Positions 5,961 to 59,795 of a stretch of DNA of 64,000 nucleotides are shown one piece after another. A program made the position numbers and the translations under genes. Numbering within the stretch: position 1 is the stretch's first letter; each line of letters begins with the position of its first letter. The notes below the pieces were generated by a model. That model was not told the DNA's origin and did no database searches. It saw only the letters and a program-made list of their open reading frames with translations. This stretch comes from Trueperaceae bacterium (GTDB taxonomy: Bacteria > Deinococcota > Deinococci > Deinococcales > Trueperaceae). The stretch lies in contig CBDCDZ010000004.1 in assembly GCA_965215565.1 (NCBI GenBank), positions 320,001-384,000 of the forward strand, given 5' to 3'.

Positions 5961-6040
5961 AGCAATGAGTTGAAAGCAATGAGCAATGAGTGAAGACCAA
6001 AACCTTTAGACTCATTGCTCATTGCTCGGTACTTATTGCT
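5961..6040. repeat. Inverted heptamer array, (AGCAATG)n-spacer-(CATTGCT)n, copy 1
   Basis: 7-bp periodicity on both arms; homologous copies at 7190 and 16019. Confidence 0.85.
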
Positions 6041-6067
6041 ATCATTCTCAGAAATAGACACTTATTA

Positions 6068-6173
6068 TAGCCATTTCACTTATCGTTGCACCACTGCAAA
6101 TATCATCCCTGAACGTGCGTGCTAGGCGATGTTCTTTCCAGTGAGAGTGTAGCTGACCAGATGATACCTGCTA
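6068..6173. mobile_element. MITE, TAGCAG family (minimal 106-bp form), TTA target duplication
   Basis: TAGCCA...CCAGATGATACCTGCTA flanked by TTA on both sides. Confidence 0.8.
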
Positions 6174-6204
6174 TTAGTCTCGAGGCTTAAAAGAAAGACA
6201 TCCC

Positions 6205-7140
6205 TTGGCTACTTCTGCAAAATCCGTCCCCTCGACTCCCGCTCGCGCCGCCAAGCTCCGGCGCGAGGCGAGCTTCGGGTGGCTCATGGTCTCGCCCGCA
6301 CTTCTCATCTTTTCGGCGTTCGTGCTCTTTCCCATCCTCGTCGGTCTCCCTCTCGCTTTCTTTGAAGTGACGATTCGCCGCGCCGGGGTTGACCTCGACT
6401 GGGTAGGTCTGTCGCACTTTCGCCGCTTGGCGAGCGACGCGAACTTCTGGAGCGCCATGTGGCACTCGCTTCTCTACCTCTTGGTAGTGCCGCCCTTACA
6501 ACTCTTCTCCATCGTCTTGGCGGTCTTGCTCAATCAGAAGTTGCCGGGGACGGTGGTCTTTCGGACGATGTACTACATCCCTGTCGTGACCTCGATTGTG
6601 GCGGTGGGCATCACGTGGCGGCTCATCTATCAAGATAGAGGGGTCGTCAACGGTTTACTCGCGTCACTGGGCGTGATTCATCCCTTGGACCCTATTGGCT
6701 TTTTGTCTGACCCAAACGTGGCGCTATGGGCAGTCATGAGTGTGACGCTCTGGAAGGGCATCGGCTACTACATGGTTATCTATCTGGCGGGATTGCAGGG
6801 CATTCCGAAAGAACTCACCGAGGCGGCGCGCATCGACGGCGCGGGCTACGCGCAAAGTGTTTGGTTCGTGACGATTCCGCTCTTGCGCCCGTTCGTCCTT
6901 CTGTGCAGCCTCCTCTCGACGATTGCCGCGTTGCGCGTGTTCGACGAGGTCTGGGTCATGACAAAAGGTGGACCTGTCGGCTCGACGTCGGTGGCAAACA
7001 CGTACCTTTACCGGACGGGCTTCGAGCAAGTTCAATACGGCTATGCGGCGGCGGTGGGTCTAGCCATCGGCGTGGTGGTGCTCATCGTGTCGGTGGCGGT
7101 GTTTATCTTCAATCGGCGCGGCGGGGTGAGGGCGTATTAG
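6205..7140 (+). CDS. Sugar ABC transporter permease
   Basis: Multiple TM segments; EAARIDGA motif. Confidence 0.92.
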   Translation: MATSAKSVPSTPARAAKLRREASFGWLMVSPALLIFSAFVLFPILVGLPLAFFEVTIRRAGVDLDWVGLSHFRRLASDANFWSAMWHSLLYLLVVPPLQLFSIVLAVLLNQKLPGTVVFRTMYYIPVVTSIVAVGITWRLIYQDRGVVNGLLASLGVIHPLDPIGFLSDPNVALWAVMSVTLWKGIGYYMVIYLAGLQGIPKELTEAARIDGAGYAQSVWFVTIPLLRPFVLLCSLLSTIAALRVFDEVWVMTKGGPVGSTSVANTYLYRTGFEQVQYGYAAAVGLAIGVVVLIVSVAVFIFNRRGGVRAY

Positions 7141-7189
7141 GGAGACCCAGTTGCGCAATAACCCGTTTAGGATGCGGTTTCTTATAGGG

Positions 7190-7290
7190 AGCAATCCCCT
7201 TTCGGGGACGAACGGTGAGTTGAAAGCAATGAGCAATGAGTCTAAAGGCTCTATTTTTCACTCATTGCTCATTGCTCGTTGCTCATTGCT
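7190..7290. repeat. Inverted heptamer array copy 2, with a 21-bp insertion at 7196-7216
   Basis: Aligns to 5961-6040 except for extra CCCCTTTCGGGGACGAACGGT. Confidence 0.85.
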
Positions 7291-7331
7291 AAAATATCCA
7301 TGCGAGTTTCAAACGAGTCCAAGGTCCGTGT

Positions 7332-8150
7332 ATGACTAAAGCGTTACGCTGGACGCTCCTCTACGCGCTCCTCCTCTTCTTCGCGCTGGTCTCCGTCGGT
7401 CCTTTCTTGTGGCTCGTCTCGACGTCACTCAAGTCGGGCAACGTCTTCGCCTATCCGCCGCAGCTTTTACCCGAAGAGCCGACGTTAGAGGCGTATATCA
7501 CCGTCTGGAACGCCCAAGACATGCCCCGCTTTCTGTGGAACACCGTGCTCATCACCTTTTGGGGCGTATTTGCGAACGTGGCGCTCTCGTCCACGGCGGG
7601 CTACGCTCTGGCGCGGGTGCGCTTTCCGGGGCGCAACATTATCTTCGGGCTCATCTTGTCTACGCTCGTTTTGCCCGACACGGTGGGCATCATCGTCAAC
7701 TTCATCACGCTGGCGCGGCTCGGGCTCATCAATACGATCATCGGCGTGGTGCTACCTTACGCGGTGGTGGCGGTCAATATCTTTATCATGCGGCAAGCCT
7801 TTATCGGCATCCCGAGCGAGCTAGAAGACGCCGCCCGTATCGACGGGGCGAGCGCGTTCGGCATCTGGTGGCGCATCATGCTGCCACTGGTGCGCCCTGC
7901 CTTGATGACGGTGGTAATCTTTCAGTTCGTCAACATGTGGAACCTCTACATCTGGCCCCTCATCGTGTTACAAGACCCGGACAAGTATCCGCTGTCGGTA
8001 GCGATTGCCAGTTTGACGCAAGGGGAGCTGTCGCTGAACTTTTCGAACATCGCGGCGGCGACGGTGATTTCAATTGTTCCGGTAATCATCTTGTTTTTAG
8101 CCTTACAGCGCTACTTTATCGAAGGCTTAGCGGGCTCGGTGAAAGGGTGA
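7332..8150 (+). CDS. Sugar ABC transporter permease
   Basis: EDAARIDGA motif; ends GSVKG. Confidence 0.92.
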   Translation: MTKALRWTLLYALLLFFALVSVGPFLWLVSTSLKSGNVFAYPPQLLPEEPTLEAYITVWNAQDMPRFLWNTVLITFWGVFANVALSSTAGYALARVRFPGRNIIFGLILSTLVLPDTVGIIVNFITLARLGLINTIIGVVLPYAVVAVNIFIMRQAFIGIPSELEDAARIDGASAFGIWWRIMLPLVRPALMTVVIFQFVNMWNLYIWPLIVLQDPDKYPLSVAIASLTQGELSLNFSNIAAATVISIVPVIILFLALQRYFIEGLAGSVKG

Positions 8151-8162
8151 AGTCGGGCTGAC

Positions 8163-9647
8163 GTGACCCTCCTCCTCGTCCCCCCCGACACGCGCCCGCC
8201 GACGCTGGCGTTTCCCCGTAACCTCGCTCTAGCTGTTGGCTTGAACGTTCTTGTCCCGCCACCGAACGCGCTCAACACAATCAACGAACCCGGCGATACT
8301 GAAGTTTTGCGTGAATGGCTTTTGGACAACGCCGCTGACGCTTCGCTTCTTATCGTGTCGCTCGAGACCCTCACCTTGGGCGGCATGATTCCGGCGCGGC
8401 GGGTAGATACTTCTTCGGAAGAGGTAAAGGAGAGGCTCGAGCTTTTACGAACCCTAAAAGAGGTCAATCCTGAGCTGCGCACCTTAGCGCACGGCGTCAT
8501 CGTACGTGTGGCTCACGATAATGATCCAATAGAAGAAAAGTCTTACTACGGCGTGTGGGGTGACGCTTTGCGGCGCTACTCTGAGCTGAGTGACCGCGCT
8601 TCAAGAGGTGAAGACGTTTCTTTGGAGACAAGCGAGCTACCCGAAGAGATTTTAGAGGACTGGCTCACCACGCGGCGGCGCAACCATCGGCTTCACCTAG
8701 ACGCTTTGGACCTCGTAGCGGAAGGAGTGCTAGAACACCTGTGTTTGACGTTGGACGACACGAGCACCTACGGACTCGCCGCGCAGGACAGGCGGGGGTT
8801 AGAAGCGAAAACGGATAACTTGGGTTTGTGGTCACAGGTAGATATCTACCCTGGTGCAGATGAGGTTTCCGCGACTCTGTTAGCAAGAGCGCTCAATCCC
8901 GAACCCCTTAGAGTAGCGGTGTGCTATCCGAATGCAAAGAGTCCTTTAGTAGAACTGCGCTACGAAGACCGCTGTCTGGGTGAACTCGTCAAGGCGCACG
9001 TGCGGGCAGCGCGCGCGGTAGAGGTTGAGCGTGTCGAGGACGCCGACCTTATCTTGGCGGTGAACGCGCCCGCACTGAAACAAGGAGAGGTGCAGCCGGA
9101 TTACGCGAATGTAGACACCGCTGAGCGACACTTGCCGTTATTTGTAGAGAGCGTGAAAGGGTGGTTGGGGCAAGGCACCCCCGTCACCCTCGCCGACGTC
9201 GCCTACGCCAACGGAGCCGAAGCGCGGCTCATGAGGTTGCTCGCCGCACAAATACGGCTGAGTGACCTCTCCGGTTTTAGCGCGTGGAATACGGCGGGCA
9301 ATTCGCTGGGTGGCGCGTTGGCGCAAGGACTGCTTGCACATAGGATAGAAAACCAGGAGAAATGGCTCGAGCTGCGTTTCAACCGCTTCGTGGACGACTA
9401 CCTCTACCAAACTCACGTCCGCGCCGAAGTTTATATAGCGTTGCCCAATCCCGACCCCTTCGACCTCGGTGAGCAAGTCGAGCAAGCCGAAATTATGATC
9501 GATGAGCGCATTCGACCTCTCGCTGAAACCCTTTGGGCTGAGCATTTCGCAGATGAAACGCACGACCTCGTCTGGCAGCCTGCCCGCCTCGCCTGGGCGC
9601 GTCTCTTTACGGGAGTGTTTGGGCTCGAGGTGAAAGCGAGAGCGTAA
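8163..9647 (+). CDS. DUF4127-family protein
   Basis: N-terminal VPPDTRP, YPGADEV, DVAYANGAE and AWNTAGNSLG motifs typical of this family. Confidence 0.75.
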   Translation: MTLLLVPPDTRPPTLAFPRNLALAVGLNVLVPPPNALNTINEPGDTEVLREWLLDNAADASLLIVSLETLTLGGMIPARRVDTSSEEVKERLELLRTLKEVNPELRTLAHGVIVRVAHDNDPIEEKSYYGVWGDALRRYSELSDRASRGEDVSLETSELPEEILEDWLTTRRRNHRLHLDALDLVAEGVLEHLCLTLDDTSTYGLAAQDRRGLEAKTDNLGLWSQVDIYPGADEVSATLLARALNPEPLRVAVCYPNAKSPLVELRYEDRCLGELVKAHVRAARAVEVERVEDADLILAVNAPALKQGEVQPDYANVDTAERHLPLFVESVKGWLGQGTPVTLADVAYANGAEARLMRLLAAQIRLSDLSGFSAWNTAGNSLGGALAQGLLAHRIENQEKWLELRFNRFVDDYLYQTHVRAEVYIALPNPDPFDLGEQVEQAEIMIDERIRPLAETLWAEHFADETHDLVWQPARLAWARLFTGVFGLEVKARA

Positions 9648-9674
9648 TATGTTTAGGGATTCTGACGGCGTTCG

Positions 9675-9696
9675 ACAAGGGGTTGAAACCCCTTGT
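9675..9696. repeat. 22-bp hairpin ACAAGGGGTTGAAACCCCTTGT
   Basis: Perfect stem; degenerate copy at 26817-26835. Confidence 0.6.
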
Positions 9697-9781
9697 TTAG
9701 GAGGAGAGCGATGTGTGGCAGGCTTTTTCAATTCACTTCTGAGATGTATAGAGGCGCTGATAACGCGCACTTCTCACCTTT

Positions 9782-14135: not shown

Positions 14136-14164
14136 CGCTGAATTGAATGAGGTAGCGTTCAAGA

Positions 14165-14773: not shown

Positions 14774-14820
14774 GCTCAAGTTTAGACCTTCGCGCATCCT
14801 CGAACCTTGCCTTATGCGGA

Positions 14821-14952
14821 TAGCAGTTCCATAACCTATTGAGACAGAATGTAGCAGGTATCATCACCGAACGTGCGTGTTAAACGGTGTTTTATAAAGT
14901 GGGAGTGTTGCTTCGCATAACTTCGTTCACTCTGACTAGATGATACCTGCTA
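14821..14952. mobile_element. MITE, TAGCAG family, carrying a 21-bp module at 14909-14929
   Basis: TAGCAGTTCC...GATGATACCTGCTA termini; flanks do not match. Confidence 0.75.
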
Positions 14953-15015
14953 AAAATTATGTCGTGCAACCTCGTATTACCTCTTCTGAGCAAGACTTCG
15001 CGATAAGGTGAAAGG

Positions 15016-16018: not shown

Positions 16019-16282
16019 AGCAATGAGAAAAGACAGCGATGAGTACCGAGCAATCCCCTTTTGGGGTTACGCAGTCTTCCGAAGGAAACGAACGGTGAGC
16101 AATGAGTAAAAACTGAAGACTTTAGACTCACTACTCACCGTTTCGTTTCGTCGCTTTGCTCCCACTAGGCGAAAACTTCATAATCGTTCCTTCGGCTAGT
16201 GGCTAGCGGGAGCGCACCACGCGACAGCGTATGCGACTGTACTGCGTAACCAGTTCGACTGAGTTGCTTTCAACTCATTGCT
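16019..16282. repeat. Inverted heptamer array copy 3, expanded by nested small modules
   Basis: AGCAATG/CATTGCT arms; nested 21+21-bp insertion at 16055-16096 and a longer nest at about 16137-16262. Confidence 0.8.
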
Positions 16283-23262: not shown

Positions 23263-23263
23263 G

Positions 23264-26700: not shown

Positions 26701-26836
26701 TAGCAGGTATCATCTGGTTTGAAACACTCTCACTTTTGACAACATTGTGCAGCACGCACATTCTGAGATGAGGTTCCGTTACAGCAAGCTGTGAAATCTG
26801 CGCTTATCCGTCTCAGCAAGGGGTTGAAGTCCCTTA
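26701..26836. mobile_element. MITE, TAGCAG family (one end degraded)
   Basis: TAGCAGGTATCATCTGG start; internal similarity to 30415-30594 and 31294-31505. Confidence 0.7.
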
Positions 26837-28689: not shown

Positions 28690-28963
28690 GTTCTGCCGGA
28701 CGGTTCTCTTAATGTTTACTGATCTTGCACCACGCAGATTTCACGGTCTCATTGTAACGGAACCTCATCTTTTGATGTGCGTCCGAGGCGATACCTTCTA
28801 GGCTAGGTGTGTTGCTTCGCCTAGCGGGAGCGGGACCACGCAACTTAACTTCGTTCACTATGACCAGATGACATCCCGCTCTCAGGCAAAGCCGGTCCGC
28901 TAGGCTCTGCCTGAGAGCGGGATGGCTTACGGCTGAGCGCGAAGCCTACGAAGTAACCTGCTA
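28690..28963. mobile_element. MITE, TAGCAG family, expanded by nested modules (left end approximate)
   Basis: Ends ...ACCTGCTA; contains the TGCTTCGC module, a CTAGCGGGAGCG module and the CATCCCGCTCTCAGGC hairpin (28872-28924). Confidence 0.7.
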
Positions 28964-30414: not shown

Positions 30415-30594
30415 TAGCAGGTATCATCTAGTTTGAGTGTACGTAAGTTTTGCGAAGCAACGCTCACACCGTAAATAGCGCTGTTGCTAGGCAGCAAACT
30501 TGCGTAACTAGCGCGCACATTCCGAGATGAAATCCCGCTAGCCTTGACAGGCTGAGATCTGCGCTCATCCGTCTCAGTATGTTTGGAACTGCTA
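30415..30594. mobile_element. MITE, TAGCAG family, TAA target duplication
   Basis: TAA-TAGCAGGTATCATC...GGAACTGCTA-TAA. Confidence 0.85.
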
Positions 30595-31146: not shown

Positions 31147-31293
31147 GGCATGGTCGCCCTCAACTCCCAAGAGGTCCCGCGCTAATTTCTGATGGTGGGT
31201 GCGGTCGTTGTCACGGTGCCCATCATAGTGCTCTTCTTCTGGTTCGAGAAGTATCTGGTTAGCAGGCTCACAGCGGGCGGGGTTAAGGAGTGA
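31147..31293 (+). pseudogene. 3-prime fragment of an ABC permease paralogous to 54727-56010
   Basis: GMVALNSQEVPR*FLMVGAVVVTVPIIVLFFWFEKYLVSRLTAGGVKE* versus GMVALNSQEVPRQFLMAGAVIVTVPIMVLFFWFEKYLVGGLTAGGVKE. Confidence 0.9.
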
Positions 31294-31505
31294 AGCAACA
31301 CTCTTACTTATAAGAACATCGTTTCCTTTTGCTGCGCAAAAACTACGTAATCGGAAAACTGCGTCTGCTCGCTCACGCGGAGCAACTTTTAGAAATGTAG
31401 CGTGCACTTGATTGTGATGAAGTTCCGTTACAGTAAAGCTGTGAAATCTGCGGAGAAGTGTTGCTTCGCATAGTTGCACTCAAGCAATGAAACGTGGAAA
31501 TGCTA
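31294..31505. mobile_element. Truncated TAGCAG-family MITE
   Basis: Inverse similarity to 40075-40227; ends GGAAATGCTA. Confidence 0.7.
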
Positions 31506-31604: not shown

Positions 31605-31805
31605 AAGCAGTTCACAGAAGTACTGAATTGGAAGAGCGCTTACGAAGTTTTGCCCCCGGCAAAAGCCTCAGTTCGAAGAACCATCCCGCTCTCAGGCAAA
31701 GCCTAGCGAGACGGCTTCGCCTGAGAGCGGGATTTCATTTAAGAATGTGCGTGCTCACCCAAGTTCTCTAAGGTGAGACTGGCTCAAACCAAATGATACT
31801 TGCTA
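31605..31805. mobile_element. Degenerate TAGCAG-family MITE with the CATCCCGCTCTCAGGC hairpin
   Basis: AAGCAGTTC...ATGATACTTGCTA termini; hairpin 31682-31733 nearly identical to 28872-28924. Confidence 0.7.
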
Positions 31806-33975: not shown

Positions 33976-35317
33976 CTAGACGACGCCCTCCTTGGTTGCC
34001 GCGACGGTCTCGGCGTACCACTTGGCACTCGCTTTGGGGATGCGCTCTAAAGTCTTGTAGTCGGTATAGACCAGCCCGAAACGCTTGCTGTAACCAAAGG
34101 CCCACTCGAAGTTGTCCAGGAGGCTCCAGGCGAAGTAGCCCCGCACATCCGCGCCGCGCTCTATCGCCTCGGCAACTGCCACCAAATGCGTTTTGAGGTA
34201 GCGGATACGCGCCTCATCTTTGACCTCTCCGTGCTCGAGCACGTCGGGATACGCCGCGCCGTTCTCGGTGACCAGCAGAGGCGGCGAGGTCGGATAATCC
34301 GCACTGAGCTGGACGAGCAAATCCGTCAACCCCTGCGGATAAACTTCCCAGCCCATATCCGTGTGTTCGCCTGTCGCCGAGACGTTGCGAAAGCATGGCG
34401 GGTCGCCGTCCGGATCGTGCGCTATTACCGCGCGGCTGTAGTAGTTCACGCCCAAAAAGTCGAGGGGCGCGCTGATTCGCTCCAGGTCGCCCGCTCGAAC
34501 CTCAGGCACGTCCTCACCGTAGACCTCCCACATATCCTCTGGATACTCGCCCTTGACGAGCGGCTCCAAGAACCAGCGGTTGAAAAAGCCGTCGAAGAGA
34601 CGAGCAGCTCTTTCGTCTTGAGGACTGTCGCTCGCAGGATAGCTCGGCGTGAAGTTGAGGACGATACCGTGCTGCGCGCCGGGCGCGTTCTCGCGCATGA
34701 CGGACAGCGCCGCGCCGTGTGCCAAAAGCATAATGATGCGCCGCTTGGAGCGCCTTTTTGCGGTTTTTGAATCCTGGCGCGTGTTCGCCAAAGTAGTGAC
34801 CCAGTATCGCGCTGCACCAAGGTTCGTTGAGGGTAGTGTAGGCGTGCACGCGGTCGCCCAGGCGTGCGGTAACTGCGTCGGCGTAAGTAATAAACGCCTC
34901 CACGATGTCTCTCGAGACCCATCCCCCTATGTCCTGCAAAGCTTGTGGCAGGTCCCAGTGGTAGAGGGTCACGTGCGGCTCGAGCCTCCGCTCTAAAAGG
35001 CTATCGACCAAACGGTCGTAAAAGTCGAGCCCCTTCTCGTTCACTTGACCTGTTCCTTGGGGTAGGACGCGCGGCCACGCCACTGAGAAGCGGTACGCGC
35101 CGACGTTCAGGCTCTGGATGAGGTCTAAGTCGCTCTGCCAGCGGTGGTAGTGGTCGCAAGCGACTTCGCCGGTGTCGTCCCCTTGGACTTTGCCGGATGT
35201 TGCGCAAAAGGTGTCCCAGATAGAAAGACCACGTCCGTCCTCGCGGGTTGCCCCTTCGATTTGAAAGGCGGCGGTAGCGACGCCCCAGGTGAAGTCAGGT
35301 AGAAAATCTAAGCTCAT
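33976..35317 (-). pseudogene. GH1 beta-glucosidase with a single +1 frameshift near 34732
   Basis: ATAAFQIEG and TLNEP in one frame, TENG and WSLLDNFEW in another; removing one base restores AAHHMLLAHG. Confidence 0.88.
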
Positions 35318-40074: not shown

Positions 40075-40227
40075 TAGCAGTTCCACTTACCGTTGCTTGA
40101 GTGCAACTATGCGAAGCAACACTTCTCCGCAGATATCATCCCTGAAAGTACGTGCTAGGCGATGTTCTCTTTAGTAAGAGTGTTGCTTCGCATGGCTTCG
40201 CCCAAGCTGACCAGATGATACCTGCTA
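40075..40227. mobile_element. MITE, TAGCAG family, ACA target duplication, with two 21-bp modules
   Basis: ACA-TAGCAGTTCC...GATACCTGCTA-ACA; modules at 40098-40118 and 40184-40204. Confidence 0.88.
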
Positions 40228-40731: not shown

Positions 40732-40891
40732 TAGCAGTTCCACGACATACTGAGATTGAGCGCAGATCTCTGTCCGCAAGGACTAGCGTTACGGGCAGGC
40801 CGCCCTGCCGTTGCGGGATTTCATCCCCCAAAGTGCGTGCTAGACTGTTCATTTCTCACTAAGGGTGTCTCTGACCAGATGATACCTGCTA
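40732..40891. mobile_element. MITE, TAGCAG family, TAT target duplication
   Basis: TAT-TAGCAGTTCC...GATACCTGCTA-TAT. Confidence 0.88.
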
Positions 40892-42389: not shown

Positions 42390-42712
42390 TTACAGGGCGC
42401 TCTGGAGCGGCTGGAGTCATGTGAGGTCTCCTCGAGGATGAGCTTCATTGAATACGGACGTCTTTTGCACGGCTGCGGTGCGGTGTCAAGGTGTGGCTGA
42501 GCACATTGCGGTTTAGCGAGACACCCGAATATAGGTGCGTTATATCATGGGGCGACTCGAGTCGTCCTCACCTTCGAATCAGCTACCCTTACACGAGAAA
42601 CCGCCCATGAAACAAAAAAATCACAAGCAGAAGTATTGTGAAATAAATCATTTACAGAGTACGCTCGAATTAGCTCCGAGTCAAACTAAAAACAAATTAA
42701 GTCAGGAAGTTG

Positions 42713-43080
42713 TAGCTATCCTTAGAGTGTGTACCAATTGCGTAGTTTGCCGTTAGGAAACGATGTTCTTATAAGTAAGAGCGTTGCTTCGCTTCTCCCG
42801 AAGGTGCGCGAAGCCTCCGTCAGGAAGGGCTTGCGCGTTAGCCAACGAAGTTACGCAAACGAAGTTTCCCTTTCGCATACAGGTGATCGCTGAACAGGTG
42901 AAGGCTAAGAGCCTAGTGAGCTTTGCTCTAACCTGAGGTGAAGGCTAAGAGCCTAGTGAGCTTTGCTCTAACCTATGCGAACGGTTTTCAACCGTAACCT
43001 GTGCGAAAACGGCGTGACCGGGAATGGCTTCGATCAAGCTGACCAGATGATTGCGCGAAGCTTTACGAAGTAACCTGCTA
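42713..43080. mobile_element. Heavily nested TAGCAG-family MITE containing a tandem 39-bp repeat (42896-42934, 42936-42974)
   Basis: Backbone CGATGTTCTTATAAGTAAGAG...AGCTGACCAGATGA...ACCTGCTA; left end approximate. Confidence 0.7.
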
Positions 43081-45713: not shown

Positions 45714-45883
45714 GCGTGGCTCAGCAAATATATGAAATAATATGTTCACGAGCCTGACTATTGTGAAATATTTCTAAAGCTAGTCGATGTGCCCTGAAGA
45801 ATTTTTGAGGACATAAGCACTTTGCCAGCTTGCAAAAGAGTCATCAACCGCATTGGCGGGTTAGTGGGAACGCTCGGAAGTCG

Positions 45884-46420: not shown

Positions 46421-46546
46421 CGCCAGAAAGTGTACCGCTCAAGTTGCTTTGGGTAAGCGTGCTAGGTAACGTGCTGAGCAGTGGGCGTGAAGTGAGCGAA
46501 AGCACAAAAATTTCACAAGCAAAAGTGTTGTGAAATAATTCTTATT

Positions 46547-49361: not shown

Positions 49362-49366
49362 GCTCC

Positions 49367-50005: not shown

Positions 50006-50015
50006 ATCTTATATT

Positions 50016-50190: not shown

Positions 50191-50220
50191 TTGACAGCGC
50201 TCTAAAAGCACCGTTATAGT
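50191..50220 (+). promoter_or_regulatory. Sigma70-type promoter of tRNA-Ala
   Basis: TTGACA-N18-TATAGT. Confidence 0.65.
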
Positions 50221-50236
50221 TTTCTTTGCGCTGCGC

Positions 50237-50312
50237 GGGGCCTTAGCTCAGCTGGGAGAGCACCTGCTTTGCAAGCAGGGGGTCATCAGTTCGAATCTGA
50301 TAGGCTCCACCA
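50237..50312 (+). tRNA. tRNA-Ala (TGC)
   Basis: GGGGCCT acceptor stem with G3:U70, TGC anticodon, TTCGAAT T-loop, encoded CCA; 76 nt. Confidence 0.97.
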
Positions 50313-50338
50313 TTAGAAAAGCGCGTCAGAAACGTAGG

Positions 50339-50380
50339 AAACCGGAATGCTTAAATGGCGTTCCGGTTCTCTTTTTGTTT
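50339..50380 (+). terminator. Intrinsic terminator downstream of the tRNA
   Basis: AACCGGAATGC/GCGTTCCGGTT stem followed by a T-rich tract. Confidence 0.7.
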
Positions 50381-50427
50381 GATTTACTACTACGCCACTA
50401 CTAAAGGCTATAAACCGAGTCAACACA

Positions 50428-51460
50428 CTACGTCTCGTCACGTGATGGCGTAATACCAGGCACAACTTCAACAGCCTCGTCTTCAGCGAAGTGCGTGTAG
50501 ATGTCTAAGGTCATACTTGGTCTCGAGTGTCCCAATAGTCCCGAAGCTGTTTTGAGAGGGACGCCCGCGTAGTGCAAATTCGTTGCGAACATATGCCTCA
50601 AATCGTGTAAATTTGCGCGAGGAATCTGCGCCTTGTCCTGCAATACCTGCCAAGTGCGCGTTAAGTTACGGTGGCTGATAGGCGTGTTGGTTACAGACGT
50701 GAATATGAGATTATGGATAGGCGCATCTGCTCCTAAAGCGCATGACTCTTGCCGCTGAACCTTTTGGTAAATGTAGAGTGCAGCGAGAACGTCATCAGGT
50801 AAGCCGAGCCGCCGCTGGCTCGAACGTGTTTTCAGGGGCGCAAGTTGTCCGTCACGCCCTAGCTGATAGGTCACTCTAAAGACATTACCGGATAGGTCGT
50901 CCTACCTCAACCCGAGGAGTTCACCCTGCCGTAAGCCGGTAGCGAGGGCTAGTGTGAAGAGTGCGCATAGTCGATGAGCCTGGAGAGAGGCGAGGATACG
51001 TTGCTTATCTTCGCTGCTCCAACTGATTGGTGTTCGAGGTGTTTCAGGAAAGGGTTTGGTGGCGCTCACCGGATTGCGGTGGATCAGCTCGAGATCGTAG
51101 GCGTCGTTAAGCGCGTTGAGTAAAACGGCGCGACACTGGTTAGCAGAACGTGTCCCGACCTCGTCAGCAAGTGTTCCTATTGCGGCGCGAACTTCTTGAG
51201 GGGAGCGCGCGACGAGCTTTGAGCGTCCTAGTACGCGAGATAGATAATGAACGTTACGTGTATAAGTTTCAGCCGTTCTAGGGCGTATACTGCGCCGCTT
51301 ATAGGTCAGCCACTCCTCCAAATACTCGTTGAGAGTTCGTGTACTCCCGTTGTAAGTACCTTGCTTCACTTGCTGCTTTAGGTTATCTAACTTCTGAGCA
51401 ACTTCTTACCGCGTCTTCCCGTAAACGAACTTGGGGTTTTCGGCCCAACCCCTCGAAAAG
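50428..51460 (-). pseudogene. Phage/ICE-type tyrosine integrase pseudogene next to tRNA-Ala
   Basis: KFVYGKTR*EVAQKL, TGLRQGELLGLR*DD, LHDLRH and LGHS..MTLDIY; in-frame stops at 50902 and near 51406. Confidence 0.88.
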
Positions 51461-51518
51461 GTACATTTCAGAGCTAGCGCAGGGACTCTATAACCGCGTC
51501 CAGGTCTCTACCCTCTTA

Positions 51519-52134
51519 GAGGGTGTCTGGGAAGGGTCTATCTCTTGGATTTTGCGAGCCTTGTCAACATCGAACGTACCATAGCAGCGTAGATCAAGGC
51601 TTCACTACTTTGGGGCAGGCGCTCGTAGTCTTTGCTGTGGCGTCTATGACGGCTAATCCCAGGTTAGGTACATCGTGCCAGCACTCGAACGGGCAAAGCC
51701 CGCCCCTTCGGGGCTAGTTCTCTGTGATGCTCACCTGTACAAAGGTTCTTTCTACCACCTAGCGTCTAGGCAAGACCTTAAAGGTGCGGTTGCCCTTGAG
51801 CATAGCAAGTTGTTCAGGCGTGAGTTCTTGTCCTTCGGGAAGCCAAAAGCCTCGGATGCCTGCGTAAGCATGTTGCACAATCTCGATGGTCCAGCCTAAG
51901 GAGTCCGTGACCCACTCTTGGAAGGTGCGCTCCCCCGTCAATAAAGAGGTGGCGAAGTCTACCGAAGCGCCCCTGTAGTGCTTCAAGCAGTTGCTCGCCT
52001 CCGGCTGGGTCACTGATGTTGGCGGCAAGCACAAGTACGCCCAGAAGTAGCCCTTGCGTATCAACCAGGATGTGTCGCCGTCGCCCTTTAACTTTCTTGC
52101 CCCCATCGCACCCTTTGACGCCGCCTGCTTCAGT
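51519..52134 (-). mobile_element. IS5-family (IS1031-like) remnant: 3-prime half of the transposase and right IR
   Basis: GGKKVKGRRRHILVDTQG, FKVLPRRW.ERTFAW and SKDYERLPQSSEA; end GAGGGTGTCTGGGAA next to TTA; frameshifts and a 76-bp insertion. Confidence 0.85.
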
Positions 52135-52812
52135 GTGCCTTAGCCGCGTCGCCAACTCAGGTCCAGACAAGGACCTGCCGTGACCCGCCGCGAGGGTAAA
52201 GGGCTCGAGTTCAGCGAGGCTCGAGACCGAACGTCGAGCTGCGACCCAGTCAGGCGTAAAGGGCGTAGGCGGGCGGCTCAGCTCGCGCGCGTGTGTAAGC
52301 TGGGATGTCCAAGAATCCAGGTTCATCGTAGCGAGCGCGTCGCCCGCGATGAGGGTCCGGTCCGCCTCGCGCCACAAGGACACATGACCGGGTGTGTGAC
52401 CCGGCGTGTGAACCGCACGCCACCCCGGTAGCCCCGGTACGCTGCCGTTCGTCGGGAGGGGCTGCACCCGAACACCGAAATCGTAACCGCGGTGCGGGAA
52501 GGCTCGAGACATCATCGCGAGTGCGCCGCCCACGGTCGGGTCTTGCGGCGGGTAGTCCGACGCGCCTGTCAAGTAGGACAGCTCGAGCAAATGTGCGTAG
52601 ATAGGAACGTCCCAGGTCCTGGCTAACTCGAGCGCCGTGCCCGCGTGGTCAAAGTGTCCATGGGTGAGCACGATGGCTTCAGGCTTAGCGCTCTGACCGT
52701 AGCGCTCTTCAGCCGCCTTGCGAAGATAGCGCTCTGAGTCGGGCAGCCCCGTATCGACCAAGACCCAGCCCCCCTGCGGCGCACCAACCAGATAAGCGTT
52801 GACAAAGACTAT
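52135..52812 (-). pseudogene. Metallo-beta-lactamase-fold hydrolase, truncated at both ends
   Basis: FVNAYLV, THGHFDHAG, TPGHTPGH and AGHG; fused to the IS5 remnant; no start. Confidence 0.8.
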
Positions 52813-53378: not shown

Positions 53379-53464
53379 TCTGAAACTTGTGGGTTTTGTG
53401 CAGCGAACGCGCGCAACTCTTACAGAACGTAAAAACCTACTTTTGCAAGAGGTTTACGGTTTCT

Positions 53465-54730
53465 TTAGCTCTTCCAAGCCAGTATCAGCGCCGCTGTCCA
53501 CGCGAACGTATGCCCGCCCAGACCTTTACCCGTCTTAGGATCATAGTACTCAAAAATCTCCGTCTTCTCCGCGAGCGCGAGGCTGTCCTCTTTGATCTTC
53601 TGCGCCCACACCAAGAAGCCGTTTTCAGTCAGACCCTGATAAAGCATCCAATTGACGTTAATCCAAACTGGGCCGCGCCAGTAGCGTTGCGGTTCAAAAG
53701 CCGGGTCGAGCGGGCTCGTACTCGGCACGAGGTAGCGCACCTCGCCGTTCCAGGTTTCCAATACGTGGAGCATTTTCCGCGTCTGCGCCTCCGTTGCCAC
53801 GCCTGCATAAATCGGCATGAATCCCTCAAACGTGCGCACGCCGATGCGCTCGCCGCTGATGAGGTCTTTGGAGAAGAAAAAAGCCTCCTCTTCGTCCCAT
53901 AGCGATTGCAGAGCAGGTTTACTCAGGTCTAACCAACCTTCGATTTCAACCGTCTCCAGGTCAAAACGTTCGGCTAGCTCGAGCAAATCGCGGTCCGCGC
54001 GGTGCAAGATGGCGTTAAAGGCAACATCGACAACCTTAAAGGGTGACGCTTCATAGATTTTTTCAGGCTCATACTCGTGCTCGCGAAAGAGGTTGACGAG
54101 TCCGATATAGTGCTCGTACGCTTCACTGCCGGGGCGCTGCTCGGCGCTCACGTGCTCCGTGTCGCGGCGCTCACTCGGCAAAGACGCACGCGGCACACGC
54201 GCAAGTGCTTCGTCCCATAAAGGGCTGTTGTCCATCCCGCTCTCCCAAGGATGCAAGAGAGCGACGAGCCCGGTGCCCTTTGGGTCTCTAGCGCGGTAAA
54301 GCCAGCGGTGAAACTCGAGAATCTTAGGAACCAGTGCTTCGGCTTTCTCCTCCGCCAACGCCTTATCCTTGGCATTCTCAACAAGTTCTCGCACCACCGT
54401 CGCGAGAATCGGTGGCTGCGTGATGCCACTGCTCGCTACCTTACCCGAGCGCGACACCGGAACGCCCCACACGTCAGGGCCGGGAAAATAGCCCTTGCTC
54501 TCCTGGTGAAAGGCGATGTGCGGGACCATGCCATCTTGCCACTGCGCGGAGAGAAGCGTTTCAAGCTCAAGCCACGCTCTTTTCTCGTCAAACGTCGCCC
54601 AACCAAGCGCGACAAAGCCTGCGTCCCAGTTCCACTGGTAGGGATACAGGTCTGGCGCAGGGATGGTGTAGGAGCCGTGGTCGTTTGCACGGAGCACCTC
54701 TTCGCACCTCTTGATGAGTTCCGGCTTCAT
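53465..54730 (-). CDS. GH63-type glucosylglycerate/mannosylglycerate hydrolase
   Basis: LYPYQWNWDAGF, SGITQPP, HPWESGMDNSP, YWRGPVW and EYY motifs. Confidence 0.85.
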   Translation of the reverse strand: MKPELIKRCEEVLRANDHGSYTIPAPDLYPYQWNWDAGFVALGWATFDEKRAWLELETLLSAQWQDGMVPHIAFHQESKGYFPGPDVWGVPVSRSGKVASSGITQPPILATVVRELVENAKDKALAEEKAEALVPKILEFHRWLYRARDPKGTGLVALLHPWESGMDNSPLWDEALARVPRASLPSERRDTEHVSAEQRPGSEAYEHYIGLVNLFREHEYEPEKIYEASPFKVVDVAFNAILHRADRDLLELAERFDLETVEIEGWLDLSKPALQSLWDEEEAFFFSKDLISGERIGVRTFEGFMPIYAGVATEAQTRKMLHVLETWNGEVRYLVPSTSPLDPAFEPQRYWRGPVWINVNWMLYQGLTENGFLVWAQKIKEDSLALAEKTEIFEYYDPKTGKGLGGHTFAWTAALILAWKS

Positions 54731-56010
54731 TCTTTGACGCCTCCCGCTGTGAGCCCACCGACCAGATACTTCTCAAACCAGAAGAAGAGCACCATAATAG
54801 GCACGGTAACAATGACTGCACCCGCCATCAAGAATTGACGCGGGACCTCTTGCGAATTCAAAGCGACCATCCCTCTCGAGAGCGTAAAAATCTCCGGCGA
54901 GTCCAAAAACATGAAGGCGAACAAAAACTCGTTCCAGGCGATCATAAAAACGTAGAGCCCAACCGAAGCGAGCGCGGGCACACTTAAAGGCAGCGTGATG
55001 CGCCAGATGACCCCTAAGCGCGTGCAGCCGTCAATCATGCCCGCCTCCTCTAAATCTTTAGGCAACGTCTGAAAGTAACTTCGCAGCATATAGAGCGCCA
55101 CGGGAATCGTCGTTGCAGGGTAGACGACCAAAAGACCAGGAAGTGTGTCGCGTAAACCGATCTGAGTGAAAACTGCATAGAGCGGCACGACCAACACGAT
55201 AGCCGGGAACATATAGATGAGCAAAATCGAGCGTGAGAGCATGTCGCGCCCCGGAAAGCGCAGCCGCGTCACGGCGTATGCGCCTAAGACCGCTAGCAAA
55301 AGGGTAATAATCACAGTGGCGACGGCGACTATCGTGCTGTTCAAGATGTAGCGGGCGAAGTCGAAGCGGACCAATACCTCGCGGTAGCCGACCAACAAGT
55401 TACCGAGTCCTTGCGAGAAGTCGATGCTCAAATTGGTGGGATCTTGTAAAAAGGTCGAGCGAGACTTGAGGCTCGAGGCGACCATGAAGTAGAAGGGAAA
55501 GACGACAACCGAGATAAAGAAGATAAAGCCAAAGCCGCGCAAAAGGCGCAAGGTGATGGTTTCATAGATGTTCGAGCCCGCCTCAGCCAAGTTGAGGTCG
55601 CGCAGGCCGTAGCGGGTTAAAAAGGCGGCAGCGCAGAAGGCGAGGGGCGCACCGATGACGCCCCATAAGACGCTGACCTCGCCGAAGCCGAGCGGTCTTA
55701 AACCTGTAAACACGAGCCAGAGCACGCCGACACCCGCGCCCACGGCGAGTGCGAACCAGAGCGGCGTCGTCTGTTTTCGGTTCTCCTCTTTGCGCATCGC
55801 GCTCAGCGTGAGTCCGATCACGAGACCGCTTAGAAGCGCCCAGCCGAGCGGCGTGCTGACCTCTAAGCGGCTAAAAATCACCGCGAAGAATGCCCACAGC
55901 AAGACGGCGGTCAGCGTCGAGAGTGCGCCCATCAGCGCGGCGATGGCGAAGCCCGTTACGGAGGGAAGGTTGCGGGGTGAGGTCTGGGTACGGGTTGCTT
56001 GTGCCATCAC
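54727..56010 (-). CDS. Sugar ABC permease with N-terminal extra TM segments
   Basis: EEAGMIDG motif; about 150-aa hydrophobic extension. Confidence 0.9.
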   Translation of the reverse strand: MMAQATRTQTSPRNLPSVTGFAIAALMGALSTLTAVLLWAFFAVIFSRLEVSTPLGWALLSGLVIGLTLSAMRKEENRKQTTPLWFALAVGAGVGVLWLVFTGLRPLGFGEVSVLWGVIGAPLAFCAAAFLTRYGLRDLNLAEAGSNIYETITLRLLRGFGFIFFISVVVFPFYFMVASSLKSRSTFLQDPTNLSIDFSQGLGNLLVGYREVLVRFDFARYILNSTIVAVATVIITLLLAVLGAYAVTRLRFPGRDMLSRSILLIYMFPAIVLVVPLYAVFTQIGLRDTLPGLLVVYPATTIPVALYMLRSYFQTLPKDLEEAGMIDGCTRLGVIWRITLPLSVPALASVGLYVFMIAWNEFLFAFMFLDSPEIFTLSRGMVALNSQEVPRQFLMAGAVIVTVPIMVLFFWFEKYLVGGLTAGGVKE

Positions 56011-57269
56011 TCACCCTCCGGGGTATAGCGGAAATAGATGACTATGAAAATTGCTAGGATGAAAAAGAGCACCACCGCCGTCGCCGCGCCCGCGCCGATG
56101 TCTGAGCGTCCAAAGGCGTTGTCATAGACCTGCACGGGCAGCGTCTCCGTCCCGGCTGCGCCGCCAGTCAAGAGGAACACGTCGTCGAACTTGTTAAAGG
56201 TCCAGATGAAGCGCAGCAAGAAGAGCGTCGCGACGATGCCCACGAGCTGCGGCAGGGTGATGTAGCGGAACTTCTGGAACGCGCCCGCACCGTCCACCTC
56301 GGCGGATTCGTAAAGCGCGTCGGGGATGGCTTGAAAGCGGGCGAGCACGAAGAGGAAAGCGAAGGGGAAGTAGCGCCACGCTTCAAAGGCGATGACGGTA
56401 GAAAGTGCAAGCGGGAAGCTAAATGAGAGCCCTAGCAAGCTCACCTCGAAGCTGCGCTGGCTCAGGAATGAGATGGGCTCGTGCATGAGGCCAAACTCTA
56501 AACCCAGCGCGTTCAAGCTGCCGCTAAAGGGGTCTAAAAAGAAGGTCCAGGTAAAGGCAACCGCGATCACTGGCGCGACGTAAGGAAAGAGGAAGAGCCC
56601 GCGCAAGAAGCCCTTGCCGAAGAACTCACCCTGCAAGAGCTGCGCGGCGAAAACGCCTAACAAAATCGAGCCGCCCGTGCCGAAAAGCGTGTACGCGAGC
56701 GTCGTCCACAGCACAGGCCAGAACTCGCGCCCGGAGAGTACGAAGCGGAAGTTTTGAAGTGTGAAGTTGAAGTTCGTCAGCACGTTGCTGGCGTCGCCGC
56801 TCAGAGTCGGTTGGGTTGGGGCACGCTGATCGATACTATCCGCGAAAAATGCTTTACTCGTCTCGAAGGAGAACGCCACGTTCTCGCTGTAGCCGCCCTC
56901 CCACTCGCCAAAGTCGCAGATTAGCGAGCGCCCGTCCACGCTACACGCTTCGGGCAACTCTGTCGGCGTCAGCCCGTCGGCGAGTTGCGCCTCTAACGTC
57001 ACGTTGCGAATCGTCACGTCGGGGCTGCTATTGCGCATCAAGTAGCGCACCTCTAAGGGGTCGCCAGGATTTTTGACGGACACCGCCCGCTCGCGCACCA
57101 CAGGTACAGGTGGGCGCAGGTCGCCCAGTTCGATGTTCTTGAAGCTGATCCAGAAGTTTGCCAGCACCGGGAAGATGACCACGGCAAAAACGATCAAAAA
57201 GGTCGGCGCGAGCATCCAGAAGGCGAGGCGCGCCTCGCGTTGGCTGAGACTTTGTTGTTGCTGGTCCAT
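56007..57269 (-). CDS. Sugar ABC permease with an inserted extracytoplasmic beta-rich domain
   Basis: ESAEVDGA motif; about 110-aa insert after TM1. Confidence 0.9.
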   Translation of the reverse strand: MDQQQQSLSQREARLAFWMLAPTFLIVFAVVIFPVLANFWISFKNIELGDLRPPVPVVRERAVSVKNPGDPLEVRYLMRNSSPDVTIRNVTLEAQLADGLTPTELPEACSVDGRSLICDFGEWEGGYSENVAFSFETSKAFFADSIDQRAPTQPTLSGDASNVLTNFNFTLQNFRFVLSGREFWPVLWTTLAYTLFGTGGSILLGVFAAQLLQGEFFGKGFLRGLFLFPYVAPVIAVAFTWTFFLDPFSGSLNALGLEFGLMHEPISFLSQRSFEVSLLGLSFSFPLALSTVIAFEAWRYFPFAFLFVLARFQAIPDALYESAEVDGAGAFQKFRYITLPQLVGIVATLFLLRFIWTFNKFDDVFLLTGGAAGTETLPVQVYDNAFGRSDIGAGAATAVVLFFILAIFIVIYFRYTPEGE

Positions 57270-57365
57270 CCTCGAGCCTCCTCAGTGAGATTTGAGGTTC
57301 TGTGCCCCGGGCTGTTAGCTAAAAACAAAAGCTAAGATGCTTCGTGCGCGTCTCTATACGCGCAC

Positions 57366-58706
57366 TCAGTTCTGCTGCAGCGCCCGCACCTCTTCCTGAA
57401 TCCTCGAGACCGCCTCCTCTACCGAGAATTCACCATCAGTGAACTGCCGGACGATCTCCGCCATAATCCGCGTGTCGTAAAGCTGCGAGGTCAGCTCGCC
57501 GTAGCCTTGACTGTAGCCCCAGCGCGTGCCCGTTTCCAAGCCTTCGACGAGGTCTTGAATCGTCTCCGCTTCATAGAACTCGCTTAGGGGCGCGCGGCGG
57601 TCCACGCCGACCTCTAGGTTCGACCAGGCGTTGATGAACTGCTCAGAGTTGTCTTGGGTGCCGCGCCGTTGCGGGAACTTACCCTCCGCCGCCATACCGA
57701 GTGTTTGGTCGTACGCTTCGGAGAGGGAATATTCCACGAACTGCCGCGCCGCCTCGAAGTCCGCGTCTACGGTGATGCCAAAGTAGCGCACGTCCGTCCA
57801 ACCTGCGCCCTCTTTATTGCTCGGACCGGATAAGCGAGTCACGAAGCCCGAGTCCTGGGCGAGTTGTGGGCTGGTGGGGTCGTCTACCGCCGTCACGGGC
57901 ACCTCGTTACGCAATCCAGCGAGTTCGTCTAGGATGAAGGGCGACCAGATAATCATGGCGGCGCTGCCCGCGAAGTATAGCTCGCGTGACTGCTGCCAGT
58001 AGAGGTTGCCAGGCGGACTCGCCTCGACCAAGTCTTTGTAGAACTCGAGCGTCTCGGTGAGCTTTTCCGTGTCGAGCGCGATGTTACCCTGGTCGTCCAC
58101 CAAGTTCACGCCGTTGGCGAGCGCGATGTGCTCGAAGACCTGCATCATGTAGCCCTCGCTGGGGTCGGTGGCGGCGACGAAGCCGTACATGTCGGGCGGG
58201 CTATGCAAGGCTTCAATCGCGGCGCGAATAGCTTCGTAACTCGTGGGCGGCTCTAAGCCTGCCTCTTCAAAGAGGTCTTGGCGGTAAACTAGAAGCTGCG
58301 TCCAGCCGTCAACGGGCACGGCAGCATAGCCATCCTCGACTTCAACTAAATTAAGTGCACCCTCGTAAAAGGTGTCCGCACCAAGCGTCTCGATGGCTTC
58401 GGCGGCGCTAAAGGGGTCTAAAATGCCCGCGCTCGCCCAGCCCAAAGTGTAGTTGAGCGGATGGTAAATCACGTCGGGCAGTTCGCCCGCGGCGAAGGCG
58501 GCGGTGACGCGCTCGCCCATCTGGGTTTCGGTTACAGGGATAACCTCGACGCTGACGCCCGTTTGCTCCTGGAAATCTGAAGCGATGTTGCGCTGCACCT
58601 CCAAGCGCTCAGGTTGCTCCTCGGTAGTCCAGAGGACGAGTTGGGCGGAGGCTACACTGCTTGCGAATAGAGCTATGGCGATGGCGACGCTTAGAAACTT
58701 CTTCAC
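57366..58706 (-). CDS. Sugar ABC transporter substrate-binding protein
   Basis: Signal peptide; AAGELPDV and VPVDGW.QLLVYR motifs; AAGGAG RBS. Confidence 0.9.
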   Translation of the reverse strand: MKKFLSVAIAIALFASSVASAQLVLWTTEEQPERLEVQRNIASDFQEQTGVSVEVIPVTETQMGERVTAAFAAGELPDVIYHPLNYTLGWASAGILDPFSAAEAIETLGADTFYEGALNLVEVEDGYAAVPVDGWTQLLVYRQDLFEEAGLEPPTSYEAIRAAIEALHSPPDMYGFVAATDPSEGYMMQVFEHIALANGVNLVDDQGNIALDTEKLTETLEFYKDLVEASPPGNLYWQQSRELYFAGSAAMIIWSPFILDELAGLRNEVPVTAVDDPTSPQLAQDSGFVTRLSGPSNKEGAGWTDVRYFGITVDADFEAARQFVEYSLSEAYDQTLGMAAEGKFPQRRGTQDNSEQFINAWSNLEVGVDRRAPLSEFYEAETIQDLVEGLETGTRWGYSQGYGELTSQLYDTRIMAEIVRQFTDGEFSVEEAVSRIQEEVRALQQN

Positions 58707-58963
58707 GGTTCACGCTCCTTACATTTTGTTTGGTACAGATTAACAGAAAAAGGCGTGAAGGAATAAATTTTCGGCACGAGGTTCGTACACACTGCGAGCG
58801 TGAATAGAACCTCTTTATGTGTCGCTGCGAATTTCTGGAGACTCTTCGGAGTGCTGTCTTCCGAAGCTTAGGAGAAGCGGGATGTAAGAAGCGTATAAAG
58901 TTATACTAACCTGATTCAAGGATGTCGTAAATTGAGAGCGTCTGAGGGTACGCGCTCACGCGC

Positions 58964-58995
58964 GGTTTAGATGTCGTACTTTTGACATCTAAACC
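58964..58995. repeat. Perfect 12-8-12 inverted repeat
   Basis: GGTTTAGATGTC-GTACTTTT-GACATCTAAACC. Confidence 0.8.
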
Positions 58996-59023
58996 TCACT
59001 TTAGTATTAGAGTTCTATGGGAG

Positions 59024-59795
59024 TGGGCTTGGCTTATTTCCTCGGACAGCCGAAGTATACAGCTAAGCGGCTAAGCTCATCTCCTGATTCTCTATAGGTT
59101 GTTGCGACAACTCGAACGTGTTGGGCGTTTCGTAGTTGAGCGAGCTATGCAGTCGTTCGCGGTTGTAATAGACCTCGTTATACTCGAACACTGCGACGCG
59201 AGCGTCATCACGGGTGGCAAAGCGCCCTACTGGGCAGACAAATTCGCGCTTTAAGGTTGACTAAAAGCTCTCGATCACCGCGTTGTCGAAGCACGCCCCT
59301 TTTCCAGCGAAGCTCGGCGGCATCTCATATGCGCGAAGTTCACGCTGATAGGCGTAAGAAGTGTATAGGCTACCTTTGCCGCCTAGGTGAAGGCATAGGT
59401 CAGAGCGAAGCTCAAAGCACCTTGTGCTTCACCTATAGAGCCTTTGAGCTTTGCTCTAACCTTGTGGGTCAAGCCGGGCGGGGCTTGCGCCGGGTCGCGG
59501 CTGAACGCAAGGCTTGTGACACCAAGTCATACCAGTCTGAAAAAGGGGTGTCGCAACGTGAGGGCGTCCGAAGTCACGCTCATAGAGCGTTTAAGGATGT
59601 CACGTTGCGACACCCTTAAATCACTTTGGTATCAGTTTTCATACTATCGGCTATCGCGTAGCCAACGATACGCTTCGAAAAACCGTCCATGACGCCCACC
59701 AGGTAGAGCTCGAATGATCAAAGCCCGGCCCTTCAGACCTAGTTTCCAGCCCTCGGCGGTCGGCAGATACGCAATATCGACTACCGTGCTATTCG
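59024..59795 (-). mobile_element. IS3-family remnant (OrfB integrase core and right IR) interrupted by three insertions
   Basis: DIAYLPTAEGW/LYLVGVMDGFSKRIVG, GSLYTS, GACFDNAVIESF*STLKRE and YYNRERLHSSL; end TGGGCTTGGC...GGACAG. Confidence 0.88.
59530..59631. mobile_element. 102-bp palindromic MITE with TACCA termini, TCA target duplication
   Basis: TCA-TACCA...TGGTA-TCA; long internal IR GGGTGTCGCAACGTGA/TCACGTTGCGACACCC; excision restores the IS3 frame (K-T-D-L). Confidence 0.88.

Follow-up and report, generated by a model that had tools for sequence, protein, structure and literature searches.

We know of no account, since 2008, of how the small dispersed repeats (SDRs) of Nostocaceae move. 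Their family features were reportedly laid out by Elhai et al. 2008 (Genome Res 18:1484), who are also said to have proposed a route through RNA. SDRs are units of 21-27 nt with two hairpins that show compensatory changes; they nest in themselves and are hosted by heptamer arrays and minitransposons. One of them, SDR5, is reported to insert between bases 3 and 4 of HIP1, i.e. before an A (PMC4390886; this and the other PMC sources are cited from partial text). In the part of PMC5861425 that is cited, no SDRs were found in HIP1-rich cyanobacteria outside Nostocaceae, and the SDRs of this family are also cited in PMC3116915. Here we describe short modules from a Trueperaceae bacterium of the Deinococcota, starting from a window of 64,000 nucleotides (G000:C4:320001-384000), by which we mean the whole stretch of DNA that was analysed. 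The initial annotation had distinguished three tiers of non-coding repeats in it, all of which are real: miniature inverted-repeat transposable elements (MITEs), inverted heptamer arrays and short modules. It is well supported that the 17-27-nt modules are SDR-type micro-insertion elements that were inserted many times independently. They share with SDRs the length, the nesting and the kinds of host and, for the twin-hairpin modules called class I below, the two hairpins with compensatory changes and precise insertion before A without target duplication. They differ in their phylum, in having smaller members of 17-19 nt, in that a single host base gives way to some of them (D and E of class II), and in that the evidence points to DNA rather than RNA. 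What is new is the presence of SDR-kind modules in another phylum, the kind itself being already described but unexplained; the literature covered, mostly open-access, holds no report of SDR-like units in Deinococcota, nor of an SDR mover.

The source genome (G000; 4.49 Mb, 58% GC, 99.99% complete) was compared with two sister species of its genus (G001 and G002; genus set n=3) and with a panel of 61 genomes, made up of the three genus members and 58 other relatives (tallies count the unpublished G035 as one row, and no conclusion depends on it). Alignment of G000 with sequence from G001 (2.0 Mb) and G002 (0.4 Mb) revealed filled and empty pairs at aligned sites. Two cases fix the direction of change. 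In remnants of IS3-family elements, each carrying several modules, the reading frame identifies the empty state as ancestral; one IS3 site is empty in G000 and holds different modules in G001 and G002, copies that need not be positional orthologues. The nrdJ gene (G000:C4:806925-810890) carries in G000 only an in-frame, I-a-like insert of 21 nt that adds seven residues, and the site is empty in all four relatives compared (G001, G002, G025 and G005). This is also the case for a small open reading frame (ORF) bearing the same peptide as the nrdJ insert, whose site is empty in both of its homologues. [quoted passage not shown] At one site, 188 of 412 pairs of nearly identical MITE backbones are made up of a copy with and a copy without a module, and on a tree of 285 backbones module status is close to random (71 parsimony changes against 80 when shuffled), with the reservation that the tree, from 77 columns, is weak and that, at sites in the MITE, gene conversion could give the look of repeated insertion. 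Because of noise in the de novo scan for junctions, recurrent clusters alone were used; read mapping gave no usable within-population signal, contigs cross-mapping among repeats. As a separate observation, the middle region of nrdJ matches intein-containing profiles.

Four modules of about 21 nt had been quoted in the initial annotation, here M1 to M4; they were found at 7196-7216 (M1; 7195-7215 in the list of features below), 16067-16087 (M2), 14909-14929 and 40184-40204 (M3) and 43052-43072 (M4), with 3, 2, 19 and 3 exact copies genome-wide, respectively. They had been taken for unrelated families, which did not hold: M3 and M4 are one family (I-b) on opposite strands, and M2 has the same twin-hairpin design. 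The blueprint common to M2, M3 and M4 consists of a 5'-T and two abutting mini-hairpins with C-GNA-G loops and compensatory stems, inserted without duplication before A. Hundreds of short modules (17-27 nt) are present in G000. In class I, the initial T is followed by two hairpins, the first of 2-3 bp, with 0-1 bases as spacer between them; the second closes exactly at the 3' end of the module. Lengths are conserved within each family: 21-22 nt in I-b (M3 and M4; 2+9+1+9 = 21 nt), 21-24 nt in I-a (M2), 21-22 nt in the M1 type of class II, a hairpin with a tail, and 20-25 nt in D, while I-c is shorter (17-19 nt) and, like a 26-27-nt type, inserts inside I-a. J modules (39-42 nt) have an outer stem and two hairpins. 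Descriptor counts were 163, 102 and 61, against 4, 0 and 10 in reversed-genome controls, and a generic twin-hairpin descriptor was barely above its control. Long ORFs (at least 600 nt) make up 74% of the chromosome and contain only 4 of 271 class I matches, some of them spurious; this rarity is expected from purifying selection or from the targeting of repeats.

Within the window, empty and filled versions of the same sites and the nesting of modules were both borne out. The array site 5965^5966 is empty and its twin holds the module at 7195-7215; the M1-type module is itself empty at 7195 and has taken up a second module at 16067; the MITE at 6068-6173 is the empty twin of filled copies at 14821, 30415 and 40075. 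Nesting includes I-a in I-a, D in D and I-a in the M1 type. The features are, by position (MITE-A being the MITE family described further below):

5960-6041, no strand: inverted heptamer array, empty at module site 5965^5966
6068-6173, plus strand: MITE-A without modules, 106 bp, with 3-bp target site duplication; empty twin of filled copies
about 7190-7291, no strand: inverted heptamer array, filled
7195-7215, plus strand: class II hairpin-plus-tail module (M1), 21 nt, in heptamer array
9676-9695, no strand: palindrome of 20 bp resembling repetitive extragenic palindromes (REPs), 128 two-strand matches genome-wide
14821-14952, plus strand: MITE-A, 132 bp, one module
14909-14929, minus strand: class I-b twin mini-hairpin (M3, read on minus)
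16020-16137, no strand: inverted heptamer array with nested modules
16054-16095, plus strand: M1-type module split by a class I-a module
16067-16087, plus strand: class I-a twin mini-hairpin (M2)
26701-26836, minus strand: MITE-A with its left end replaced and a 23-nt class II D module
28690-28960, plus strand: relative of MITE-A, decayed, in which several class I-b and D modules are nested
30415-30594, minus strand: MITE-A holding a 25-nt D, I-a (30485-30507) and I-b (30438-30459), three modules in all
31290-31505, minus strand: MITE-A carrying I-b (31462-31482), D and I-c, and one I-a inside another (31328-31350)
31605-31805, plus strand: variant of MITE-A that carries I-a (31640-31662) and one D inside another
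40075-40227, plus strand: MITE-A with two I-b on opposite strands (40098-40118, plus; 40184-40204, minus)
40732-40891, plus strand: MITE-A with a D module enclosing a nested 27-nt module
42756-43079, plus strand: composite nest in the right half of a MITE-A, with split I-b, split I-a, tandem 40-nt J and I-b at the terminal repeat
42896-42974, plus strand: two tandem 39-40-nt J modules
43052-43072, plus strand: class I-b module (M4) in a MITE terminal repeat
59111-59781, minus strand: remnant of an IS3-family element, interrupted by a long palindromic insert and by nested J modules (59385-59462)

Covariation supports the folding of the modules, with compensatory stems in both I-b and I-a. For I-b, 34 distinct 21-mers were chosen by their host flanks only, one of them being a stray. 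Pair 4-10 is Watson-Crick in 33 of the 34 (16 G-C, 17 A-T), pair 5-9 in 32 and pair 14-20 in 29, and both loops are GNA in 33. Paired cells of the first stem number 85, against a shuffled mean of 52.5 and a maximum of 65, a column shuffle that kinship among sequences can beat without selection. Among 36 I-a inserts taken from alignments, 35 start with TT; in 28 the first stem, two bases long, is paired (AC/GT in 25, AG/CT in 3) and its loop is GNA; four further inserts have four-base G..A loops. Over class I as a whole, the first loop is closed by C-G in 115 of 143 distinct modules. ViennaRNA energies, around -1 kcal/mol on both strands, are uninformative.

The junctions are equally regular. 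Class I modules lie directly 5' of A, with neither duplication nor loss: where an exact 11+11-base empty twin exists, the following base is A in 65 of 65 cases for I-b, 69 of 73 for I-a and 17 of 20 for I-c. Over 49 contexts the target is a loose N^A-C-G (C in 31, G in 36), and left flanks vary, with no fixed tetra- or pentanucleotide 5' of the insertion. In class II, one M1-type sequence (one variable base allowed) has 22 copies in at least 11 unrelated contexts, and the window's own version of M1 was once inserted inside itself. The D and E modules are not pure insertions, one host A being replaced by a pyrimidine: D sites have a pyrimidine in 94 of 94 filled cases against A in 321 of 331 empty ones, and E sites a pyrimidine in 22 of 22 against A in 244 of 250.

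The burst of modules is confined to 3 of the 61 related genomes. The commonest I-a type (one mismatch allowed) was matched 35 times in G000 and once in each of its sister species G001 and G002; the phylum sample, with 298 other genomes, gave no further match. A family-blind pattern (two C-GNA-G loops at I-b spacing) has 135, 165 and 165 matches in the genus, against 37, 26 and 22 in controls; the other 58 genomes have 0-40, mostly at control level, with a mild excess in G030, G024 and G020. A four-base-spacer pattern is in roughly twofold excess in the genus. The class II D module is also present in G025, and an archaeal contig holds a single exact copy of the commonest I-a module (230-251, intergenic), with no family in that genome.

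The closest match in design comes from Nostoc itself. On plasmid pNPUN01, seven 21-mers starting with T split HIP1. Five of these retain all six I-b pairs or all but one, and their GNA loops are placed as in I-b. Thus, of the parallel site-specific micro-insertion system proposed for Deinococcota, the independent and site-specific parts stand, whereas a system unrelated to that of Nostoc is not supported, I-b having the blueprint of the Nostoc HIP1 inserts. By this blueprint we file class I under the SDR kind, not under a named SDR family, and as far as sequence can tell, common descent and convergence may each account for the likeness between the genus modules and the Nostoc SDRs. The target differs from that of SDR5: HIP1 is not among the contexts, although the rule of insertion before A is common to both. 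HIP1 itself is under-represented in G000 (41 copies, 0.16 times the expected number), so that the term HIP-like in the initial annotation fits only other over-represented words, which are not class I targets. A blastn search of a module-rich stretch against plasmids gave no informative match. The over-represented words are a palindromic octamer around CTCGAG (1576 copies, 5 times expected) and a non-palindromic AAGAGGT word (8-mers at 7-10 times expected genome-wide), a HIP-like phenomenon outside cyanobacteria.

As for the mechanism, we lean, at a confidence no better than evenly balanced, towards modules of SDR type that move as folded single-stranded DNA handled by a yet-to-be-named enzyme. 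One strand would fold into DNA mini-hairpins. A nuclease/joinase acting in trans, probably by HUH-like chemistry, would make two cuts, one 5' of the T that opens the module and one 5' of the A that follows it. The strand set free, short and either linear or a dumbbell circle, would be joined again at another N^A site, in DNA that is single-stranded, exposed and for the most part neutral. More speculatively, the first T and the following A could pair, placing the cut sites symmetrically for a dimeric enzyme. Copy number would then likely be raised further by self-moving hosts (the MITE and other modules), with a possible contribution from gene conversion between copies of the MITE. GNA triloops alone form DNA mini-hairpins, d(GCGNAGC), and the single RNA counterpart given in the cited text of PMC13037366 melts at 39 against 76.5 C. 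The modules share the GNA triloops closed by C-G; they differ in that the mini-hairpins are paired here as a mobile unit and in that many stems are A-T, for which the cited part of PMC13037366 does not show equal stability. The C-G-closed GNA loops, the weak RNA form and the lack of a reverse transcriptase (RT) in two of the three genomes favour the single-stranded DNA route over RNA, and the duplication-free joints fit single-strand cut-and-join chemistry. Of the earlier suggestion of an RNA- or hairpin-mediated process, the hairpin part is supported and RNA is disfavoured.

Besides the reservations made above on the MITE tree and the column shuffle, several observations count against movement as folded single-stranded DNA. 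A transposition intermediate was not observed. No sense or skew bias of the modules was found, with a skew so patchy that replichores could not be defined. The second I-a loop is often not GNA, and pair 3-11 of I-b persists in just 20 of 34. Finally, no enzyme tracks the burst, and one HUH candidate, taken up below, fits neither the distribution nor the junctions. A bolder proposal, which we make tentatively and rate somewhat below the previous one, is that an undescribed enzyme class common to Nostocaceae and this genus excises and re-inserts 17-27-nt single-stranded DNA units with two GNA mini-hairpins, cutting 5' of T and of A. It would be the smallest transposition system known, DNA-based and not RNA-based, and able to add seven residues in frame. 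If so, the enzyme should be findable by subtracting the 58 module-poor relatives from the three module-rich genomes, the burst in another phylum providing a sharp presence/absence contrast for finding the mover. The likely intermediate is shifted from RNA to single-stranded DNA and several obvious candidates are removed; a system for the scarless writing of 20-base units into DNA would also be of technical interest.

The alternative that survives best, while still unlikely, involves no dedicated enzyme: nuclease-resistant mini-hairpin scraps would be captured at nicks or breaks by host repair and spread by gene conversion among repeats. The flush hairpin end of class I is a form that resists 3' exonuclease (PMC13037366, partial text), most copies lie at few MITE sites, and the lack of an enzyme tracking the burst suits this idea. 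However, the invariant first T and following A and the fixed lengths suggest a specific factor, and the burst is confined to three genomes although members of the order would be expected to share their core repair genes.

We consider it rather improbable that the modules are mobilised as a side activity of a REP-associated tyrosine transposase (RAYT). A RAYT-like HUH gene lies between mutS and mutL (G000:C4:3590035-3590598), is also present in G001, and has a similar locus in G018; no other free-standing enzyme for strand transfer of single-stranded hairpins was found in G000. HUH chemistry leaves no target duplication, and one RAYT cuts before both T and A (PMC8266576, partial text). However, the gene, present in 2 of 3 genus genomes and 13 of 41 genomes, was not found in G002, which has as many I-b pattern matches (165) as G001, and 11 other RAYT-positive genomes show just 2-19 matches and no burst. 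It has its own GTAG palindrome family, one copy lying inside its reading frame. Known RAYTs cut at C|T or C|A according to the cited text of PMC8266576, and module junctions lack this C, the base before class I sites not being C-specific (C in 11 of 49 contexts). An earlier statement that the genus has no RAYT was wrong: the PF01797 genome search had missed the gene that a local profile found, so the absences of enzymes reported here are provisional. G000 thus has a GTAG-REP/RAYT pair that is separate from the modules. REP/REPIN-RAYT systems (PMC8266576, PMC3733652 and PMC3116915, partial texts) share with the modules short hairpins, single-strand HUH chemistry and the absence of target duplication; the modules differ in lacking a GTAG tag, in having two 2-4-bp hairpins instead of one palindrome, in not being cut at C|T or C|A and in not following RAYTs in distribution.

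Equally doubtful is movement through an RNA intermediate and reverse transcription, as proposed for SDRs. Four RT genes are present in G001, and a few loops have the form of GNRA-type tetraloops. However, RTs occur in only one of the three genus genomes, with no RVT_1 match in G000, despite its completeness, or in G002, and none with a local RT profile either; 3-nt loops dominate, and the modules have no sense bias. Far less probable still is the resident IS110 recombinase. It is present in all three genus genomes, and all seven intact G000 copies (e.g. G000:C4:681543-682807) lie at one site in the MITE terminal repeat, a site also used by class II modules. However, the guide-like matches seen in its non-coding end are to the MITE repeat (9/11 and 7/8) and to the ends of the IS110 itself (8/9 and an 8-nt run), none being seen to module ends, and 21 nt would be too short for a double-stranded circular donor. 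Guide-type targeting of this sort is ordinary IS110 behaviour. Finally, single origin at each site followed by inheritance with the parent element, the empty alleles being deletions, is refuted for the module class as a whole: some variants do cluster on close backbones (median distance 2-3 of 77 for two of them), but modules sit in many different parents and dozens of unrelated contexts, spread near-randomly on the MITE tree, and have an empty ancestral state by reading frame and outgroups in IS3 and nrdJ.

Genes for HUH/RAYT, IS110 and RT enzymes, whose co-occurrence had been proposed as a check, are thus present in the genus (RAYT in G000 and G001, IS110 in all three, RT in G001), but none tracks the burst. 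Other candidate movers were rejected. Cas1 belongs to an ordinary type I-E locus in 2 of 3 genus genomes and does not track the burst; DUF559 is absent from G000; of three GIY-YIG genes, the two small ones were read and are not flanked by module clusters; PF05635 genes occur in 21 of 61 genomes, out of step with the burst. XisH is found in all three genus genomes and also in 10 of the 58 others, which have up to 11 matches and no burst. The XisH/XisI pair of G000 (G000:C4:1023467-1024203) is about 46-50% identical to Nostoc plasmid proteins.

Two further systems may be set beside the modules. Elements of the IS200/IS605 family (IS608, ISDra2), which move by peel-and-paste (PMC6006769, partial text), are likewise single-stranded, hairpin-guided and duplication-free, and precise loss would restore the empty site. 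They are 30-100 times larger; the conserved target bases of the modules are 3', not 5', of the junction, and no lagging-strand bias was detected for the modules. IS200-type TnpA was not found in the genus by family search or local profile. Rickettsia palindromic elements, beside which CGTC REPs (PMC3733652) may be named, also insert in frame into protein genes, but the modules are far shorter (7 codons) and rare in genes.

The MITE tier behaves conventionally. MITE-A is an ordinary non-autonomous transposon, 75 of 279 copies being exactly 111 bp long. A profile built on these 75 aligns 396 good copies in G000, 358 of them with both ends, of which 165 are without a module. The ends are terminal inverted repeats with a 6-bp match, and of 340 clean copies 180 have identical 3-bp flanks, where shuffling gives 10.6 on average and 19 at most, which bears out the predicted 3-bp target duplications; a TA duplication (IS630 type) was ruled out. 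Inserts cluster at eight sites, occupied in 20, 30, 87, 91, 80, 27, 4 and 5 of the 358 copies. MITE matches occur in 6 of 61 genomes and are strong in the genus only. Neither G000 nor 2.4 Mb of its relatives yielded an autonomous partner sharing these ends, the ISAzo13 search matching no control either. The view that all tiers escape the usual logic of terminal repeats and transposases therefore fails for the MITE and for the IS110 that targets it. In G020, the right end of the MITE is present as a 21-nt tandem repeat (L009, about 1640-1720; L013, about 1550-1670), and one MITE there holds different REP-like inserts.

The inverted heptamer arrays were likewise confirmed, with three in the window and 63 of this type genome-wide. 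They may owe their origin to a gene cassette. PF05635 four-helix-bundle genes (23S rRNA IVS protein, TIGR02436) are present in all three genus genomes, and all five are bracketed by inverted heptamer arrays of some family; that of G002 is flanked by the same array family as in the window. Both Nostoc plasmid homologues are also bracketed in this way. Most of the 22 loci scored, but not all, qualify by having 10 of 14 period-7 matches on either flank alike, or eight or more inverted 7-mers in common (G035 left out): 18 reached the threshold, 3 gave little signal and one short locus was skipped. The window arrays differ in having no gene between their arms and, judging from sequence, are likely gene-less remnants of the PF05635 cassette. 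We know of no activity for the PF05635 protein.

The genes of the window encode ordinary metabolism and transport, and Rfam identified one tRNA and the signal recognition particle RNA, and nothing else. Tyrosine recombinase fragments (50237-51369 and 59750-63450) follow a tRNA-Ala and adjoin two Xre-RES toxin-antitoxin pairs; nearby, a related integrase gene occurs once more, and the fragments probably represent a decayed integrative element. A glycoside hydrolase family 1 gene (33976-35317) is broken into two overlapping frames, and an ORF with a metallo-beta-lactamase fold (51814-52761) continues into a DDE transposase fragment. In addition, three similar AT-rich intergenic stretches (42607-42645, 45732-45770 and 46499-46537) are possibly regulator binding sites.

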